Source of the DNA: a virus
Taxonomy: Duplodnaviria > Heunggongvirae > Uroviricota > Caudoviricetes
DNA: 9,182 nt
Reading direction: 5' to 3' (one strand)
Virus record (IMG/VR): IMGVR_UViG_2651869781_000012
Below the pieces are notes generated by a model. That model made no database searches, had not been told where the DNA came from, and saw nothing but the letters and a program-made list of their open reading frames with translations. A program made the translations under genes and the position numbers. Numbering within the stretch: the stretch's first letter is position 1; each line of letters starts with the position of its first letter. Shown piece after piece: positions 1 through 9,182 of the stretch.

Positions 1-251
1 GGTCATGGCCTCCATAGTGATGGCGGGTCCTCCTTGTGGGGTGCCCTGCCACGGGGCGGGAGCATCGCGGAAAAAGGCTAGTTTTTGCATTTTTATTCGT
101 CATCACCACCAATGCAATATATTGATATGACTTGATGTTTTATTTTTCGGTGTCGATTTCGATTGTTTTTTGTTCATCACTGACGCATAACGCCCACCAG
201 CGCAACGCTGAAAGCCAGTCAGTAAACTGGCTTCGGTCATTGTGCACTACG

Positions 252-794: not shown

Positions 795-822
795 CAATAT
801 CCCAACTTGGTCAAGGTTTCAG

Positions 823-838
823 GTTGGTGTGTTGGTGT
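823..838. repeat. Tandem direct repeat GTTGGTGT x2 in the cosB-equivalent interval
   Basis: Plus strand 823-830 and 831-838 are both GTTGGTGT. A nearby (ACC)n tract lies at about 881-896. Both sit between cosN and the Nu1-like start. Confidence 0.5.
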
Positions 839-927
839 TATCTTTCCCTTTTTATTCATGGAGATAGAGCAAACAACAAAACCACCACCACCACCCTGAA
901 AAAGCTCATAAATAGCGAAAAACCGCG

Positions 928-939
928 AGGTCGCCGCCC
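928..939 (-). other. cosN-like cohesive-end site (lambda-type cos)
   Basis: The minus strand reads GGGCGGCGACCT, identical to the lambda 12-nt cohesive end as I recall it. Flanks on both sides also resemble lambda: cosQ side GGGTCCTTTCCGGCGATCCGGTAGGCTACG versus lambda GGGTCCTTTCCGGTGATCCGACAGGTTACG, and cosB side CGCGGTTTTTCGCTATTTATGA versus lambda CGCGGGTTTTCGCTATTTATGA. Confidence 0.8.
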
Positions 940-995
940 CGTAGCCTACCGGATCGCCGGAAAGGACCCGCCAGCCAGAACGGGCCCTAATTTCA

Positions 996-3951: not shown

Positions 3952-5769
3952 TTAATTTTTGCTATCGTCATTAGTGACCGATACACATGATGGCATCCAG
4001 TCTTCTGATTCCTCCGTCAGTGTCACGTTTGAACGCAAACCGTGCTTCGTTTTCCGTTTCATATACTCCCTGCCATATTCCGCCATTGCCCCCGGCATAT
4101 CTTTACCGAAGCGCGTCAGTGTTACAGGTTTACCAAACCCATGTGCCTTCATATAAGCCAGATAGGCATGATAGAGATACCTGCGCGGGCTGAATGGCAC
4201 AATTTCAGCATTACCCACTAACAGGCCATCACACATTACCGACGCCATGAGATAGCCGCAGAAGTCCACCAGCGAATCACCTTCACGCTTTATCGCGAGT
4301 GCTTCTTCTGATTTCTGCTGCTCATATAAAAGGCGTCTGGCTTCGTCCTGGTCAGCAAACCGTGTAAGCAGATGACGAATCACTACCGCCAGCTCACCTT
4401 CTATTTTTTCCGCCAGCATTGAATCGCGTTCGTTCTCCGGTACAACTTCCGAAAAATTGAATATCACCCGACGGCGCGAGATCCCCCCACTGCGGTCACT
4501 GAATGACATAGCGTTATTGTTAACCGCCAGCACTACTGCCGGGATACGCGTTGAATATGGGGCTTTATGTTTCGGGTCGATTGCCACCTTGTCACCGCCT
4601 GTAATAGCCTTAATTCCCGCCCCATCACCAGCGTAGCGGGTCATATCCGGCATGATAATCAGCGAAAAGCCAACCACTAACGCGCGTTCCCTTGCATCTT
4701 CCAGCGCCTTCATGCTCGCTGATACTGTATTAGCCTTACCCGCCAGCATGGTGCAAATCTCCGCCATCACGCTTTTACCACTTCCCCCTGGACCTGTTAC
4801 CTCAATGAATAACTGCCAGTCGTACCGGTTCGCCAGCACCATGAATAATGCAGCCAGTACGCGATCCGCCTTGCGGTCATTCTCAGCCACCGAACGGCGT
4901 AACCACTTCCAGAAATTCGGCGCATGTGTTGCCAGCGTTTCCCCCTCTGCTGGTGGGCTGAAAGGTAATTCACTGGCAATTAACAACCAGTCGTTTTTGT
5001 TATGCTCCCGAAAATTACCTGTTCTGGTATCAAATACCCCGTTACTGAATCCAATCAGGTTACGGGCTGTATTCCCCATTACAGGCAAACTTAACTTCAT
5101 GGTATCGACCGCCGATTTAATGGCGTTCTGCGAATAGCTGATCTCCGCATCAATGAAAATCTGCGCCATAGCACGCTGTAACTCTTTATCCTGAACCGGC
5201 TCCCATACAACGCCGTTGTAATGGTGAACAGTGTCAGAGTCGGCATGAATCGCCAGTTCACCGCCATAATGTGCCAGGAGAACTTCGCCGCGTTGACTTG
5301 CTCCCATCTGGTTAAGCGCCAGTGATGAAGCGTTATCGTCTTTTACCCGCTCTTTTTTCTTTACAGGCAGTTCAACTACCTTTTTCTTTTCCGCCAGCTC
5401 TCCCCGCTCACGTTCCAGATATTCGCGCCAGTTCTCCCGTTTCTGGCTGTGCATTCCTTCAGGGTAATAATCAGCATCCCTGACACCTGCCGCTGCCAGT
5501 TTCTGCCCGATGGTATTAACAAGCCCCGGACGCAATAACCCCGCCTGGTAGAGACGCACGCGATAGCGTCCGTCCGGTACGATTTGCAGGTTGTCCAGTT
5601 CGGCAAGTTGTTGCTCTCCAAGCCAGACAGGTGGCACGTTATCGCCAGCCAGTCGCCCGTCCTGTTCCTGCCACTGCTTCGCATGTGCCCACGCATCACT
5701 ACCCGCAAAAATGATGACTTCCGTCATTTTGTCACGCGGCTGGTGTTTTAAATTTGGCGCTTTTTTCAT
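3952..5769 (-). CDS. Phage/plasmid primase-helicase, P4 alpha-like (SF3 helicase domain)
   Basis: About 605 aa. Walker A GPGGSGKS lies in the context FIEVTGPGGSGKSVMAEI, typical of P4-family primase C-terminal/D5-type helicase domains. ATG 5769 has GGAGAGAG upstream and overlaps the upstream gene stop (ATGA). The six-frame track start at 5784 is a GTG. Confidence 0.9.
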   Translation of the reverse strand: MKKAPNLKHQPRDKMTEVIIFAGSDAWAHAKQWQEQDGRLAGDNVPPVWLGEQQLAELDNLQIVPDGRYRVRLYQAGLLRPGLVNTIGQKLAAAGVRDADYYPEGMHSQKRENWREYLERERGELAEKKKVVELPVKKKERVKDDNASSLALNQMGASQRGEVLLAHYGGELAIHADSDTVHHYNGVVWEPVQDKELQRAMAQIFIDAEISYSQNAIKSAVDTMKLSLPVMGNTARNLIGFSNGVFDTRTGNFREHNKNDWLLIASELPFSPPAEGETLATHAPNFWKWLRRSVAENDRKADRVLAALFMVLANRYDWQLFIEVTGPGGSGKSVMAEICTMLAGKANTVSASMKALEDARERALVVGFSLIIMPDMTRYAGDGAGIKAITGGDKVAIDPKHKAPYSTRIPAVVLAVNNNAMSFSDRSGGISRRRVIFNFSEVVPENERDSMLAEKIEGELAVVIRHLLTRFADQDEARRLLYEQQKSEEALAIKREGDSLVDFCGYLMASVMCDGLLVGNAEIVPFSPRRYLYHAYLAYMKAHGFGKPVTLTRFGKDMPGAMAEYGREYMKRKTKHGLRSNVTLTEESEDWMPSCVSVTNDDSKN

Positions 5770-6065
5770 TTCTGCTCTCTCCACGCGGCAATCATGTTTT
5801 TCAGTTCCTGTAGTTTTTTATCCACATCCACACGTGACACATGGTTATTTCTGGAAGTCGGGATTTCCCGCCGGAATCTGCAAATAAAGATCTCCACGTT
5901 CAGCGAACTAAGAAATGAATATCCATCACGGATAAAATAAACACGGTCAAACATCAGTTCTTTTACCGTTACTCTGTTACCGTTCTTATCCAGATAAATA
6001 GCGCCGGGGATAATTTTGTGGTGTGCATAACCGCTGGCAGTCAAGCCAGATAAATATGTTCTCAT
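5766..6065 (-). CDS. Hypothetical protein (99 aa), operon member upstream of the primase
   Basis: ATG 6065 with GGGGA upstream; its stop overlaps the primase start. No recognisable motif. Confidence 0.6.
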   Translation of the reverse strand: MRTYLSGLTASGYAHHKIIPGAIYLDKNGNRVTVKELMFDRVYFIRDGYSFLSSLNVEIFICRFRREIPTSRNNHVSRVDVDKKLQELKNMIAAWREQK

Positions 6066-6071
6066 GATTAT

Positions 6072-6392
6072 TTATCCCCGATTTGAATCAGTATTCGCTT
6101 TCTTTATGGCATTTAATGCATCTGTGGCATTTTCAATGGTGCACCGTAACGAAATATCAAACTGCCCAAGCATTGCCAGTAACAAACCGATATTACCCAT
6201 ATCAATGCGCATGGCCTTTTCGTCATAGTCCTCATTTTCTGACGCATGCCACATCAGGCTACCAATTGACGCAATACCCATTGATATATTGTCAGTAGCC
6301 CCATCCGCAGCGGAATAAACCTTTTTAGCAATATCATGCTCACAGTTAAAATGCGGATTAATCAGGTACTGGTAACTGGTCATGTCAGGCAT
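6072..6392 (-). CDS. Hypothetical protein (106 aa)
   Basis: ATG 6392 is preceded by AGGGGG at 6 nt spacing and overlaps the upstream ORF stop by 8 nt. No recognisable motif. Confidence 0.6.
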   Translation of the reverse strand: MPDMTSYQYLINPHFNCEHDIAKKVYSAADGATDNISMGIASIGSLMWHASENEDYDEKAMRIDMGNIGLLLAMLGQFDISLRCTIENATDALNAIKKANTDSNRG

Positions 6393-6588
6393 GGAACACC
6401 CCCTGACGAATACGGGCAGTAAATACCATCACGCAGCCATCAGGAGATTGCTGGCGAGCTTCCTGTTCGCTGGTGGCCTCAATGTGAATCACGCGCGGTT
6501 GTGCGGTGCTCAGGGCGATAAAACGCCAGATGTATTTATTCAGGTTGTGCGAGTCCCGCCCTTGCGGGTGTGTGGTATGATTTAACAT
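6385..6588 (-). CDS. Hypothetical protein (67 aa), first gene of the primase operon
   Basis: ATG 6588 is preceded by GAGGT at 4 nt spacing. This is the C-terminal 67 codons of the 306-aa six-frame ORF, whose upstream part overlaps the plus-strand genes and promoter region and is probably not coding. Confidence 0.5.
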   Translation of the reverse strand: MLNHTTHPQGRDSHNLNKYIWRFIALSTAQPRVIHIEATSEQEARQQSPDGCVMVFTARIRQGVFHA

Positions 6589-6673
6589 AGCTACCTCGAT
6601 ACGCTTTCTATCGTTGGTGGTTAGAAGCCCTGCGAGTGGTAACGACACTTGCGGGGCTTTGCATTTATGCACC

Positions 6674-6757
6674 TTGACAACCTCAAGGTGTGGCCCACTA
6701 CATTCTTTAGGTGTGGCCCACGTCAAGAGTTTTATTTGTGCTTTTTCTGTGTATACT
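6674..6757 (+). promoter_or_regulatory. Divergent promoter/operator region with two copies of GGTGTGGCCCAC
   Basis: TTGACA at 6674-6679. Direct repeats GGTGTGGCCCAC at 6687-6698 and 6710-6721, each containing the near-palindrome GTGGCCCAC. TATACT at 6752-6757 lies about 30 bp upstream of the RHH gene ATG. The region sits between divergently oriented genes at 6588 (-) and 6788 (+). Confidence 0.4.
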
Positions 6758-6787
6758 GTCCCCCACCAATCCAACAGAGGAATAGAA

Positions 6788-6967
6788 ATGGCAACGGGTA
6801 CAACAAACGCAAAATCACAAGCTCTAAAGGCTCGTGTACCACACGAAATAGTAAACGCCATGGAATCAGTGAAAGAATCAGGCGAAAGCACATCACAATT
6901 CATCATTGCGTCAATGCAAGGCGAGATCAAACGCCGCCAGCGACGCAAAGCCAAGGAGTCAGAATAA
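6788..6967 (+). CDS. Ribbon-helix-helix (CopG/Arc-like) DNA-binding protein, 59 aa
   Basis: AGAGG at 6776-6780 precedes ATG 6788. The sequence KSQALKARVPHEIVNAMESVKESGESTSQFIIASMQGEIKRRQRR fits a beta-strand plus two helices RHH layout. Transcribed divergently from the primase operon. Confidence 0.6.
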   Translation: MATGTTNAKSQALKARVPHEIVNAMESVKESGESTSQFIIASMQGEIKRRQRRKAKESE

Positions 6968-7024
6968 TCACTATCAGCGCCGTGGTGTGAGTAACTACGG
7001 CGCATTGCTATGCAGGTGCTTACC

Positions 7025-7204
7025 ATGAACGATAAAGAGTTAAAAAAAACACCACCACAAACACTGAAAGGACAGCGCAAAAAGATAGCGCATGAGCATG
7101 AATCAGAAAGATTCGCCCCCTGTTCTTTTGCTCTTGAGAAATTCCTTAAGGAGCACAAGAAAAAGCTATCATTGCAAACCTGGGAACGAACCGAATCTGA
7201 CTGA
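7025..7204 (+). CDS. Hypothetical small lysine-rich protein (59 aa); coding status uncertain
   Basis: ATG 7025 is preceded by AGGTG (7014-7018). It lies between the RHH gene and the plus-strand terminator. Highly charged, no recognisable motif. An alternative ATG is at 7010. Confidence 0.3.
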   Translation: MNDKELKKTPPQTLKGQRKKIAHEHESERFAPCSFALEKFLKEHKKKLSLQTWERTESD

Positions 7205-7268
7205 TCAAATTGCCCACCAGCCAGCAAATCGCTATGATGTTCGGGCTTATGTTTAGTGTTTTCCCATT

Positions 7269-7297
7269 GGCGACCGCCCCCGGTCGCCTTTGTTTTA
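7269..7297 (+). terminator. Rho-independent terminator
   Basis: Stem GGCGACCG(7269-7276), loop CCCC, stem CGGTCGCC(7281-7288), then TTTGTTTT(7289-7296). It lies between convergent plus-strand genes and the alpA stop at 7316. Confidence 0.6.
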
Positions 7298-7315
7298 TAT
7301 GTCATATGCTCCCCT

Positions 7316-7525
7316 TTACGCTGCCTTACCTGAATTAATGCGATCCCGGCTTTTAACCCATTCCATAACCTCGGACAGCAGCCAACCTACAGAACGCCCC
7401 CCCAGATTAAGACGTGACGGAAAGCATCCTTTTTTCTCCAGTTCATAGCGTGTAGTGCGACACACTCCAGTTAACTTACGACATTCATCCTCACGGATTA
7501 CGCGATCTTCATTTATTTCACGCAT
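7316..7525 (-). CDS. alpA: AlpA-family transcriptional regulator
   Basis: 69 aa. LTGVCRTTRYELEKKGCFPSRLNLGGRSVGWLLSEVMEWV matches the AlpA HTH pattern. Same orientation as the integrase, with an AT-rich upstream region. Confidence 0.85.
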   Translation of the reverse strand: MREINEDRVIREDECRKLTGVCRTTRYELEKKGCFPSRLNLGGRSVGWLLSEVMEWVKSRDRINSGKAA

Positions 7526-7943
7526 ACAAAAACCTACATAAAAATTACGTATATAAACTTTTCTCTTAGCTGTAGATATATGAGACCGGATATTACTTAG
7601 ATTCTTTTTTCACCTCTTAAATTAAAAACACAACCTTGCTAAAGGCTTTGTTCGCTAAGGTTCGTAGAAGCTCGTTAGTGTTTAAAATCGTGTCACGAGT
7701 TTTTAAGCGACGCAACAAAAAATGTCGTCATTTGGCATTACGCTTGAATTATCTCATTAAAAACAAATAGATAAACCATCAAGTGTTGGAACAATCAAGA
7801 AACAGAGAATAAAAACTCAGAAGAAGACATTCCAATTTTTTGATGGTTAACATATATAAAGCGAAGATATTTGCAGATATTTTCCGATATTCTACGATTT
7901 ATTCACGGCTGTAATCTCTTAAAGAAAAAACAGCCGTAATTTG

Positions 7944-9182
7944 TCAAGAATTTTGGGTGTAAATTCGCGGGGCCATAACAACGATTTTTTCATCATTGTT
8001 CTGGAGAAGCTCGAGACGGTCTACCCATAGATTAAGAGCATCACGTTTTGCATCAAGATAACGGGAGTGATTATAGACTCGTTGCATCCCCGGCATCTGG
8101 TGGGCGGTAAGCTGCTCGACAATATGCGGATCCACGCCTAAATCGTTCAGCATGGTTGTAAATGTGTGCCGGATGTCATGCAACGACCAAGGGGCTTGAT
8201 TAATGCGTCTGTGTGCCGTTCTTCCGTACTCTGATACGGATGATTGCCCTTTCAGTTCTCCAAGCAATAAGCCCGTGTGCCTGTTCTTCTCCACCAGCTT
8301 CGTGACGAACGGCAAAATGCTTTCCGGTATTGGCCTGAATATGGCGACCTTCGTTTTGCTGTGCTCCTTCGGTACTGTCCAGAGCATTTCTTTAAAATCC
8401 CACTCCTGCACCTCAGAGCGCCTTAGCTCGGTGGTACGGCATCCAAAAACAATCAGGAGGCGAATTAGGGCGCTGTAGTACGGCGGGAATATTTTGTCAT
8501 CCAGAGCGCGGAGTAATTCCCCAAGCTCCTTGTTTGTTAGTACGCGCTCGCTCACTTCTGCTTTTTTTCCCACATCACCGACAACCATATCATCAAGAAC
8601 GTTGCTGATTGCGTATCGTCGTTTTCGGCAGTACTTAAGCGCCTGTTTGCATACCTGTAGCAAAAATCCGGCAGATACCGGGCTTCGCTTTGCCATCTGG
8701 TCAAAACATGTCAACCAGTGCCGTAGCTCGCATTTTTCCAACGGCATAGCGCCAATCTGGCTGATTATGTGTTTATTGATCCGGCTTTTCAGTGATTCGT
8801 AGTCAGTGCGCTTTTCCTTTGCATACGATTCAAGCCAGTAAGTAAGCGCTTCCTTAACTGTCACGGGGGCTAACGCATCCTGTACAGCACGATTAAGCTC
8901 ATAGCGCGGATTTTTCCCCTCAGCCAGCCAGGCGCGACACTGTGCTGCTTTTTCCCTGGCTGCTTTCAGGCTCAGATCGGGATAATTGCCCAGTCTCAGA
9001 CGTTCCGGTGATACCTGCCTACCAGTTCCGGCCCTGTAAGTGAAATACCAGGTTAACAGGCCGCTGGTGGAATGTCTTACGCTAAGATTGCCACCGTCAT
9101 TAAAAAAGGCGTTTTTTGTGGTTGGTGATCCGCTTAATTTTCGTAAAAGAGTGTCGCTAAGTCTATGAATTGCGCTGCTCAT
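7944..9182 (-). CDS. int: Tyrosine recombinase / integrase, P4-type
   Basis: 412 aa. The N-terminal arm-binding-like region (DGGNLSVRHSTSGLLTWYFTYR...LGNYPDLSLKAAREKA) and C-terminal catalytic motifs (HDIRHTFTT; ...QRVYNHSRY) fit the family. The ATG is the last three bases of the window, so an upstream start cannot be excluded. Confidence 0.9.
   Translation of the reverse strand: MSSAIHRLSDTLLRKLSGSPTTKNAFFNDGGNLSVRHSTSGLLTWYFTYRAGTGRQVSPERLRLGNYPDLSLKAAREKAAQCRAWLAEGKNPRYELNRAVQDALAPVTVKEALTYWLESYAKEKRTDYESLKSRINKHIISQIGAMPLEKCELRHWLTCFDQMAKRSPVSAGFLLQVCKQALKYCRKRRYAISNVLDDMVVGDVGKKAEVSERVLTNKELGELLRALDDKIFPPYYSALIRLLIVFGCRTTELRRSEVQEWDFKEMLWTVPKEHSKTKVAIFRPIPESILPFVTKLVEKNRHTGLLLGELKGQSSVSEYGRTAHRRINQAPWSLHDIRHTFTTMLNDLGVDPHIVEQLTAHQMPGMQRVYNHSRYLDAKRDALNLWVDRLELLQNNDEKIVVMAPRIYTQNS

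Follow-up and report, generated by a model that had tools for sequence, protein, structure and literature searches.

In this study, we show that a 9,182-nt stretch of DNA (IMG/VR virus record IMGVR_UViG_2651869781_000012; hereafter the window, meaning the whole stretch) is a phage-inducible chromosomal island (PICI) of Escherichia coli, a satellite with an EcCICFT073-type backbone, in which a probable cos site (817-969) precedes a small terminase gene of the Nu1 family, terS (252-794; Pfam PF07471). All substantial genes, as recognized from open reading frames (ORFs) and Pfam profiles, are on the minus strand. In map order they encode an integrase (7944-9182), AlpA (7316-7525), a DUF4222 protein, a D5/P4-type primase (3952-5784), SSB, a lambda gpE-family capsid protein (1742-2869), a gpD-family decoration protein (1391-1732) and an AlpA-family helix-turn-helix (HTH) protein (996-1379; Pfam PF05930; PDB 8c3t at E 1.6e-10). 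These are followed by the cos site, which lies on the same strand and was delimited by lambda alignment, BLASTN and conservation, and by terS; an Icd-like gene is also among the island genes. The location of cos between the AlpA-type HTH gene and the Nu1-family gene, as given in a first-pass annotation of this DNA, agrees with the ORFs, the Pfam profiles and the database annotation. No large terminase, portal, tail or lysis gene was found in the window, either among the ORFs and Pfam profiles or in the annotated copy carried by Escherichia coli W619. This copy is 97% identical, bears the same RefSeq annotation, and occupies ~10 kb between clpS and yljB/cspD. The gene set and size correspond to the core set of a Proteobacterial PICI (PMC10085698), and the co-directional integrase, AlpA and primase-replicase genes, the ~10-kb extent, and the presence of capsid-related and packaging genes place the island among the EcCICFT073-like PICIs. 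It is syntenic with EcCICFT073, which is located in CFT073 (L006 27931-38655) and runs in the order capsid, decoration, a 137-aa gene, cos1, rppA (c1503, 144 aa), cos2, and a 93-aa gene; terS occupies the rppA slot.

The cos site contains a block that is very close to the cos of phage lambda. The lambda-identical 12-mer GGGCGGCGACCT has a single match in the window even when one mismatch is allowed, on the minus strand at 939..928, with 0.03 matches expected from shuffled sequences, which bears out the core that had been read there from the sequence alone; it begins 145 nt upstream of the terS start codon (ATG 794) and on the same strand. For comparison, the lambda cos junction was taken as the joined ends of J02459, anchored on the core without gaps, and binned from the first cohesive-end base. 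Identity to lambda was 12/20 at -39..-20, 16/20 at -19..0, 19/20 at +1..+20, 17/20 at +21..+40 and 9/20 at +41..+60, and remained at background (2-8/20) beyond +60. The lambda cos sequence on which the first-pass annotation relied proved correct in this alignment. Likewise, its lambda-like flanks on the cosQ and cosB sides were recovered, and so was the fading of conservation that it placed about 25 bp into cosB. This point, about 25 bp past cosN, falls within the end of the I2 spacer, where identity reaches background at about bp +42, just ahead of the lambda R3 position. The cosQ heptamer GGGTCCT, the signal for packaging termination, is exact at 963..969 (one of two occurrences in the window; lambda-equivalent bp -30..-24); its spacing to cosN, for which about 17 bp is typical of lambda-type sites, is the same as in lambda, and it is invariant across all aligned islands and prophages. 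The lambda heptamer in the same register, at 48473-48479 as counted on J02459, is what we take to be cosQ. The cosN sequence ACGGGGCGGCGACCTCGCGG (923..942, core 939..928) matches lambda at 20/20 positions including its flanks, and the core columns are invariant or nearly so in our alignment of islands and prophages (A1), except for the variant of N15 and one island with GATCT. From lambda, the nicks are predicted to fall between 940 and 939 on the minus strand and between 927 and 928 on the plus strand. The I2-equivalent spacer (CGCGGTTTTTCGCTATTTATGAGCTTTTTCA...) follows at 896..922 (cos bp 18-44) and reads TATGAG at bp 30-35, where lambda has TATGAA. In lambda, I2 spans bp 18-50 and is essential, with bp 30-35 being critical (PMC4856287), and R3 lies at bp 50-65, according to published definitions of the cos subsites (PMC9026076; PMC4856287).

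The same limits were obtained by database comparison. When 780-1010 was compared by BLASTN with a set of 50,697 phage records, 94 lambdoid records were matched, including lambda, 21, HK629/630, 434-type and Shiga toxin (Stx) phages, and each match was confined to about 971-894 (85-91% identity, E down to 2e-21). In lambda terms, the conserved block therefore consists of cosQ, cosN, and most of I2, a segment of ~78 bp that is 88-91% identical to lambdoid cos.

Beyond this block, on the terS side, the site has a different organization. A candidate R3 is located at 881..901 (minus strand), where the arm TTTCAGGGTGGTG (cos bp 39-51), detected as an inverted repeat and by a GGT-motif scan, runs into a (GGT)5 tract (bp 45-59). 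It is followed by an A/T-rich segment at 836..880 (minus strand), assigned by position only to the place of lambda I1, the IHF bend site, and by an inverted candidate R2, CAACACACCAACCTGAAA, at 817..835 (minus strand), whose arm at 817-829 pairs with 889-901. The two arms, which are 59 nt apart and 92% complementary, form a 13-nt inverted repeat, TTTCAGG(G/T)TGGTG. Counterparts are found in N15 and in two N15-type prophages, E2855 and Ceylon31, which have R3 as (G/A)GTTGTTGT at bp ~50-60; the island R3 aligns with it column for column, and in the prophages it falls where the mapped R3 of N15 lies. In alignment A1, the island has GGTGGTGGT, part of (GGT)5, where the N15 type has GGTTGTTGT at R3, and ACACCAACC where the N15-type prophages have ACAACAACC at R2; in these prophages an A/T-rich middle, the inverted R2 and then an R1, TGGTTGTTGT, succeed R3. 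On this alignment, the putative cosB of the island is its own version of an N15-type cosB with altered R boxes, and we infer that the island TerS binds the candidate boxes. It was also observed that the putative R3 published for the Rpp-type island EcCICFT073, ACCACCACC (L006 37603-37611), is the reverse complement of the island GGTGGTGGT and that the two are at nearly equal distances from cosN; they could be the same box used in opposite orientations by Rpp-type and TerS-type readers, or a low-complexity coincidence.

The pattern of variation among island alleles follows this anatomy. Among six alleles from different strains and integration sites, the variable positions numbered 2/10 in cosQ, 2/21 in cosN, 4/27 in I2, 3/15 in the GGT tract and 2/17 in the R2 block, as compared with 12/34 in the A/T-rich middle, which is the most variable part of the site, and 13/24 between R2 and the ATG. 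The 3' part of R3 is kept in all islands, and the R2 block is kept while the segments that flank it vary. The (GGT)n tract at the R3 position (881-895) has five units in the window and three in W619 (L003 6880-6890), which moves the rest of the W619 cosB 6 bp nearer to cosN.

The product of terS has 180 aa if translation starts at ATG 794, or 175 aa if it starts at the later ATG 779. It matches PF07471 at 81 bits (cut-off 30) and is labeled terminase small subunit (543 nt) by RefSeq in the W619 copy. Its identity to lambda Nu1 is 37% along the entire protein, over 175 aa, and its closest phage relative is gp1 of N15 (47%). A search of PDB sequences with the protein gave no meaningful match; the solved structures of Nu1 and Rpp proteins comprise N-terminal parts only and are too divergent from it. 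The protein aligns to the DNA-binding domain of Nu1 with its invariant W, P, G, E, and D residues, and the alignment continues across the C-terminal part that contacts TerL in lambda (for domain roles see PMC9026076). The degree of relatedness differs along its length. In the DNA-binding domain, identity is 58-60% to the N15 type, 40% to lambda, 31% to the 21 type and 93-100% to other island alleles. In the central region (residues 67-125) it is about 50% to each of the N15-type, lambda and 21-type proteins and 85-95% among island alleles, and in the last 38 aligned residues it is 24-34% to the N15 type, 34% to lambda, 29% to the 21 type and 61-68% among island alleles. Island TerS proteins have, in addition, a 12-residue C-terminal tail that is absent from phage TerS. 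The predicted recognition helix reads SATAFDKW in all E. coli island alleles, as opposed to SVQAFDKW in N15 and both prophages. The ratio of nonsynonymous to synonymous substitution rates (dN/dS) relative to allele CH4784 is 0.16, indicating that terS is under purifying selection.

A natural domain swap provides what we regard as the strongest comparative evidence that the island TerS reads the adjacent cosB and that its C-terminal half does a job particular to the islands. A 194-aa island TerS recovered by protein search (P0099) occurs in PICIs at the phoQ locus (L034 4001-4585). Its residues 1-102 are ~97% identical to the TerS, of the 21 type, that a CFT073 prophage encodes, its residues 98-194 are ~99% identical to the C-terminal half of the window TerS, and the crossover lies within the conserved motif AQA(D/E)AQELKN. 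The cos of this island (L034 3770-4000) has the same cosQ and cosN followed by a 21-type cosB with the order R3-I1-R2-R1, each box of which has its match among the sites annotated in phage 21 (M81255). Moreover, the type of cosB co-varies with the type of the TerS DNA-binding domain across islands and phages. As judged from these comparisons, the DNA-binding-domain type and the cosB type travel together and the island-type C-terminal half is constant; its retention across the swap points to a specific function of its own. In hybrids of lambda and 21, cosB specificity was assigned to the TerS N-terminus and TerL specificity to the C-terminus (PMC9026076).

The module is common. In a DNA-level census of 5426 complete E. 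coli genomes, with modules scored at >=80% coverage, cos plus terS was present in 762/5426 genomes and the EcCICFT073 cos1 plus rppA module in 97/5426, that is, the former was ~8 times as frequent, with the reservation that a DNA search may miss distant Rpp alleles such as RppC. Since about 4680/5426 genomes have a match of the cosN type, compatible helpers seem to be common. The terS module is found at the clpS, phoQ, yejO and smrA loci and on two backbones, that of the window, with the 127-aa HTH gene upstream, and that of CFT073, with the 137-aa gene upstream; the junctions between backbones are at cosQ or just before cosN. Comparison of 252-1000 with complete E. coli genomes also recovered lambdoid prophages that match the island cos past the lambda-like block, to cos bp ~120, namely E2855 and Ceylon31, in which a 168-aa N15-type TerS, 43-46% identical to the island TerS, is followed by TerL, W and portal genes. 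Enterobacter, Citrobacter and further Enterobacteriaceae have relatives whose TerS is 57-59% identical and which keep the order capsid-decoration-HTH-cos-terS as well as a GGT-rich R3. Downstream of these relatives is a truncated lambdoid capsid gene E and then FI, FII, Z and U (L031-L033, L037-L039, ~4550-8500), so that a lambdoid prophage appears to surround them, with the relatives seemingly inserted into the capsid gene of that putative helper. This layout is the helper-embedded PICI configuration (PMC10111431) and, as far as gene order can tell, points to lambdoid helpers.

A second cos-like site lies downstream of terS at 25..70 on the plus strand, in the same position and orientation as cos2 of EcCICFT073. 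It consists of a cosQ heptamer GGGTCCT (25-31) and ACGGGGCGG-GAGCAT-CGCGG (51-70; 0 expected by chance); it is inverted and degenerate, with exact flanks, 8/12 matches in the 12-nt core and a replaced I2 part. The cos2 core is intact in O157-type and eco241 islands, where it is followed by a phage-21-type R3 (CATGTCGGTACTTCT in eco241), and the window copy reads CACCACCA at bp 51-58, resembling the proposed R3 of EcCICFT073 cos1.

Taken together, we consider it probable that 817-969 is a PICI cos at which the island's own TerS would read its own cosB and recruit the TerL of a helper phage to form a hybrid terminase. The anatomy, homologies, conservation and co-variation described above are the grounds from which binding of TerS to the R boxes, recruitment of TerL and cleavage are predicted. 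After induction, the island would replicate into concatemers, the N-terminal winged-helix domain of TerS would bind both GGT boxes, and the C-terminal half would recruit the gpA-type TerL of the helper. The latter would nick cosN at the two predicted positions to give 12-nt cohesive ends and would later terminate packaging at the next cosQ/cosN, and the hybrid of island TerS and helper TerL would prefer island concatemers. It is likely that a helper TerL could nick and terminate at this site because cosQ, cosN and I2 are nearly identical to those of lambdoid phages. The first-pass annotation had proposed that the nicking site is kept compatible with a helper while recognition is re-targeted. 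With respect to helpers of the lambda and 21 types this holds; with respect to N15-type helpers the re-targeting is only subtle, because the island cosB is homologous to the cosB of N15-type prophages and is not an orphan sequence.

Several observations weigh against this interpretation. There is no R1 box in the island cosB in alignment A1, and no match to the IHF consensus WATCAANNNNTTR within 2 mismatches was found on either strand of 770-999, although the latter carries little weight because the I1 of lambda is itself a poor match to the consensus. Docking of TerL is not assured, since identity to phage TerS falls to 24-34% over the last 38 aligned residues of the island TerS, which also vary among islands. 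Given that no more than 1-2 bases separate the R boxes from those of the N15 type, the TerS of an N15-type helper might read them. An AlphaFold2 (AF2) model built with 21 homologues was of low confidence, with a predicted local distance difference test (pLDDT) score of 64.7 and a predicted template modeling (pTM) score of 0.27; its secondary structure, helix-helix-hairpin-helix, fits a winged helix, with a pLDDT of only 65-75 in the domain. A Foldseek search with this low-confidence model gave nothing significant, the best hits being MerR-type winged-helix proteins at E 0.22. Finally, changes of 3-11 bp in the cosN-cosB spacing of lambda are harmful or lethal (PMC9026076; PMC4856287), and the length variation of (GGT)n sits poorly with this intolerance; it may represent a microsatellite-like tuning of packaging, or its inactivation.

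The alternative that survives best, which we nevertheless think unlikely, is that the island TerS works in an adaptor or poison mode resembling that of Rpp. It would co-assemble with the helper TerS through the central oligomerization region, and the mixed complex would read the island cosB and be blocked on the phage cosB, with the helper TerS providing the contact with TerL. The ~50% identity of residues 67-125 to every lambdoid TerS examined makes such mixed oligomers plausible, and these could also explain interference; terS is exactly in the slot that rppA has on the same island backbone; Rpp acts by heterodimerizing with the helper TerS (PMC6739421). The poor conservation of the extreme C-terminus relative to phage TerS is also in line with this mode. 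However, Rpps have 139-154 aa and no TerL-binding tail (PMC9026076), whereas the island TerS has its full length and can be aligned as far as the last residues of lambda Nu1, and a BLASTP comparison of TerS with RppA (c1503) found no similarity (E 1.3). Furthermore, the C-terminal half has remained almost unchanged across the exchange of the DNA-binding domain.

Slightly less likely again, in our view, is plain mimicry of a helper cos, in which the TerS of an N15-type helper would read the island cosB directly, the island terS would have an auxiliary or interfering role, and there would be no real re-targeting of recognition. The similarity of E2855 and Ceylon31 to the island cos extends through R2 (78-82% identity), with R boxes 1-2 bases off those of the island and DNA-binding domains that are 58% identical, and satellites that merely copy a helper cos do exist, such as 11capE (PMC10111431) and the cos-type Staphylococcus aureus pathogenicity islands (SaPIs) (PMC5052747). 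Against this, the G-for-T changes in the R boxes and the SATAFDKW helix are found in all seven E. coli island alleles, and GTTGTTGT and SVQAFDKW are common to all three N15-type phages. A difference in both box and helix that is island-wide on one side and N15-type-wide on the other is what two distinct specificities would produce. The R1 box that the prophages have is also absent from the islands, and the island terS is under purifying selection. That the module is an inactive relic, the captured left end of a lambdoid prophage (cos plus Nu1) that is no longer used, is most improbable even though the core of the second cos-like site (25-70) has decayed and the (GGT)n variation could mean relaxed constraint, for 762 genomes carry an intact module, which occupies several integration sites and two backbones, cosQ, cosN, I2 and the R boxes are kept while their surroundings vary, dN/dS of terS is 0.16, and the equivalent site of EcCICFT073 is functional (PMC6092414).

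In favoring packaging by a hybrid of island TerS and helper TerL, we put forward a wider proposal, on which our confidence is evenly balanced, that E. coli PICIs include a common class which exploits cos-type helpers in a third way, neither through an Rpp adaptor nor by plain copying of cos. These islands would encode a complete TerS whose island-specific C-terminal half captures the helper TerL, and their specificity would evolve by swaps of matched DNA-binding-domain and cosB cassettes, either of the N15 type with changed R boxes or of the 21 type. PICIs move virulence and defense genes between enterobacteria at high frequency, and competition for the packaging motor of the helper decides which phages mobilize PICIs and which are blocked by them. 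To our knowledge, the Rpp route is the only one that has been elucidated in cos-type islands. The terS module is also a natural system for a question long posed in lambda, namely what in TerS and cosB determines specificity and how strictly the spacing between cosN and R3 is fixed, and it offers for this purpose a natural domain-swap series and a length-variable (GGT)n at the R3 position. Orthogonal pairs of cos and TerS from such islands could be of use in engineered cosmid or PICI delivery vehicles.

With regard to the other features of the island, the HTH gene upstream of cos (996-1379) encodes a 127-aa protein with a 35-residue N-terminal extension, and its 3' end is just upstream of cosQ. 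Its position is kept in the Enterobacter relatives, and an unrelated 137-aa gene is found there in O157-type and CFT073 islands. Since it is replaced in these islands, the HTH gene is not an obligatory partner of cos; its product may be a regulator of the late operon. The idea that it corresponds to the 137-aa protein encoded at this place in EcCICFT073 was rejected, as the two have no similarity. A scan of 1-1500 found no sigma-70-like promoter, and no Rfam family was matched across the whole window. The only terminator-like match within the cos site in the scan of 1-1500 was cosN itself (926-941, minus strand), in which the two-fold symmetry yields a 5-bp G+C-rich stem that is followed by the T-run of I2; transcription from the HTH gene into terS would pass through it. 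Directly upstream of HTH-cos-terS are the gpD and gpE homologues, whose EcCICFT073 counterparts are c1500 and c1499. One idea is that these proteins change the size of the capsid, as with Ccm of SaPIbov5. In EcCICFT073, interference could not be attributed to the capsid or decoration genes by deleting them, and packaging in full-size heads was reported (PMC6092414). An island of ~10 kb is far under the packaging size of lambda, and either several copies per head or a smaller head of the gpE/gpD type would be needed.

Related loci were surveyed as well. Between terS and the prophage junction, the relatives in Enterobacteriaceae carry cargo on the opposite strand, consisting of FRG-domain and DUF3892 proteins or of a 402-aa protein without a Pfam match, which are possibly defense genes. 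The roxA/phoQ attachment site hosts three kinds of PICI in different strains: the Rpp type (CFT073), the terS type (O157 strain 9000 and others) and a capsid-forming type. Sp7 of O157 Sakai (L041 4712-20172) has been reported to be excised and packaged (PMC2669165), which would have lent experimental support had it been a terS-type island. This identification was rejected because Sp7 has a different set of head genes and encodes both a TerS and a TerL; it is the PICI of the capsid-forming type at this attachment site. In GTDB genomes, a peptide-pattern scan confirmed no TerS relative, and an exact scan for the cosN plus I2 pattern gave 16 loci, mostly lambda-like DNA in unrelated assemblies, which makes them a poor sample of diversity.

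The system most closely comparable to ours is EcCICFT073 (Fillol-Salom 2018, 2019; Murialdo and Feiss 2022). Its cosQ and cosN resemble those of lambda and phi80 and its cosB does not, and its cloned cos works (PMC6092414; PMC6739421). It needs the helper terminase, with the helper TerL acting at the conserved cosN, and RppA forms a heterodimer with the helper TerS that reads the island cosB and no longer the phage cosB (PMC6092414; PMC6739421). That lambda-like cosQ and cosN together with a foreign cosB redirect helper packaging was demonstrated experimentally (PMC6092414; PMC6739421; PMC9026076). The principle of a kept nicking site with re-targeted recognition is thus already published for this island family and is not a new concept. 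The variant in the window combines a full-length TerS encoded by the island with a matched cosB of N15 derivation, the pair being exchangeable as a cassette; terS genes of PICIs have been catalogued (PMC10085698), and we found no description of, or experiment on, the terS-type variant in the searchable literature. The window resembles EcCICFT073 in its backbone, gene order and location of cos after the capsid and decoration genes, and in having a near-lambda cosQ and cosN, a conserved I2, a non-lambda cosB and a second, inverted cos downstream. It differs in that a 144-aa Rpp follows cos in EcCICFT073 and a 180-aa full-length Nu1 homologue without detectable similarity to it follows here, and in that the two inverted, N15-homologous candidate R boxes of the window stand in place of a single R3, ACCACCACC, that Murialdo and Feiss placed at bp 55-63 (PMC9026076). 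Rpps are 139-154 aa, which leaves them 30-40 residues short of TerS, and they probably lack the TerL-binding domain (PMC9026076); the island TerS, at 180 aa and Nu1-like to its end, falls outside this definition.

Among phages, N15 and the prophages E2855 and Ceylon31 have the closest TerS DNA-binding domain (58-60%) and an R3 at the same distance from cosN, and both prophages have an inverted R2 at the corresponding place. They have GGTTGTTGT boxes as opposed to GGTGGTGGT and GGTTGGTGT in the island, and their recognition helix differs at two residues from that of the island TerS. Moreover, R1 is missing from the island, as is a TerL gene behind terS, and the island TerS has a distinct C-terminal half with the 12-residue tail. 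With lambda, the island shares the 12-nt core and its flanks in cosN, a cosQ at the same spacing, the greater part of I2, the arrangement of cos and then terS in one orientation, and a TerS that is a full-length homologue (37%). It differs from lambda in having no R boxes of the CGTTTCC type and no recognizable I1 site for IHF, and in a DNA-binding domain that is 40% identical and lacks the insertions of lambda.

The logic of a satellite-encoded TerS acting at a satellite-specific site has its precedent in TerS-S of SaPIs, which teams with the helper TerL (PMC6092414; bioRxiv 10.1101/2022.09.08.507074). However, SaPI packaging of this kind is of the headful (pac) type and uses an unrelated TerS family, whereas the island is of the cos type, and a satellite with cos-type packaging must also preserve the nicking and termination sites of its helper. 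The helper-embedded PICI (HE-PICI) 11capE, which copies the helper cos and has no terS (PMC10111431), and cos-type SaPIs such as SaPIbov5 (PMC5052747) likewise have a helper-compatible cos in a satellite without TerL. They differ in copying the whole helper cos, cosB included, and in using the helper TerS, as opposed to the island-specific pair of cosB and terS seen here. Lastly, P0099 mirrors the laboratory design of the lambda-21 hybrid terminases, in which a 21-type domain and a 21-type cosB are combined with a C-terminal half of another lineage; it differs from them in having arisen naturally in satellites, and the part that stays constant is the island-type C-terminal half.

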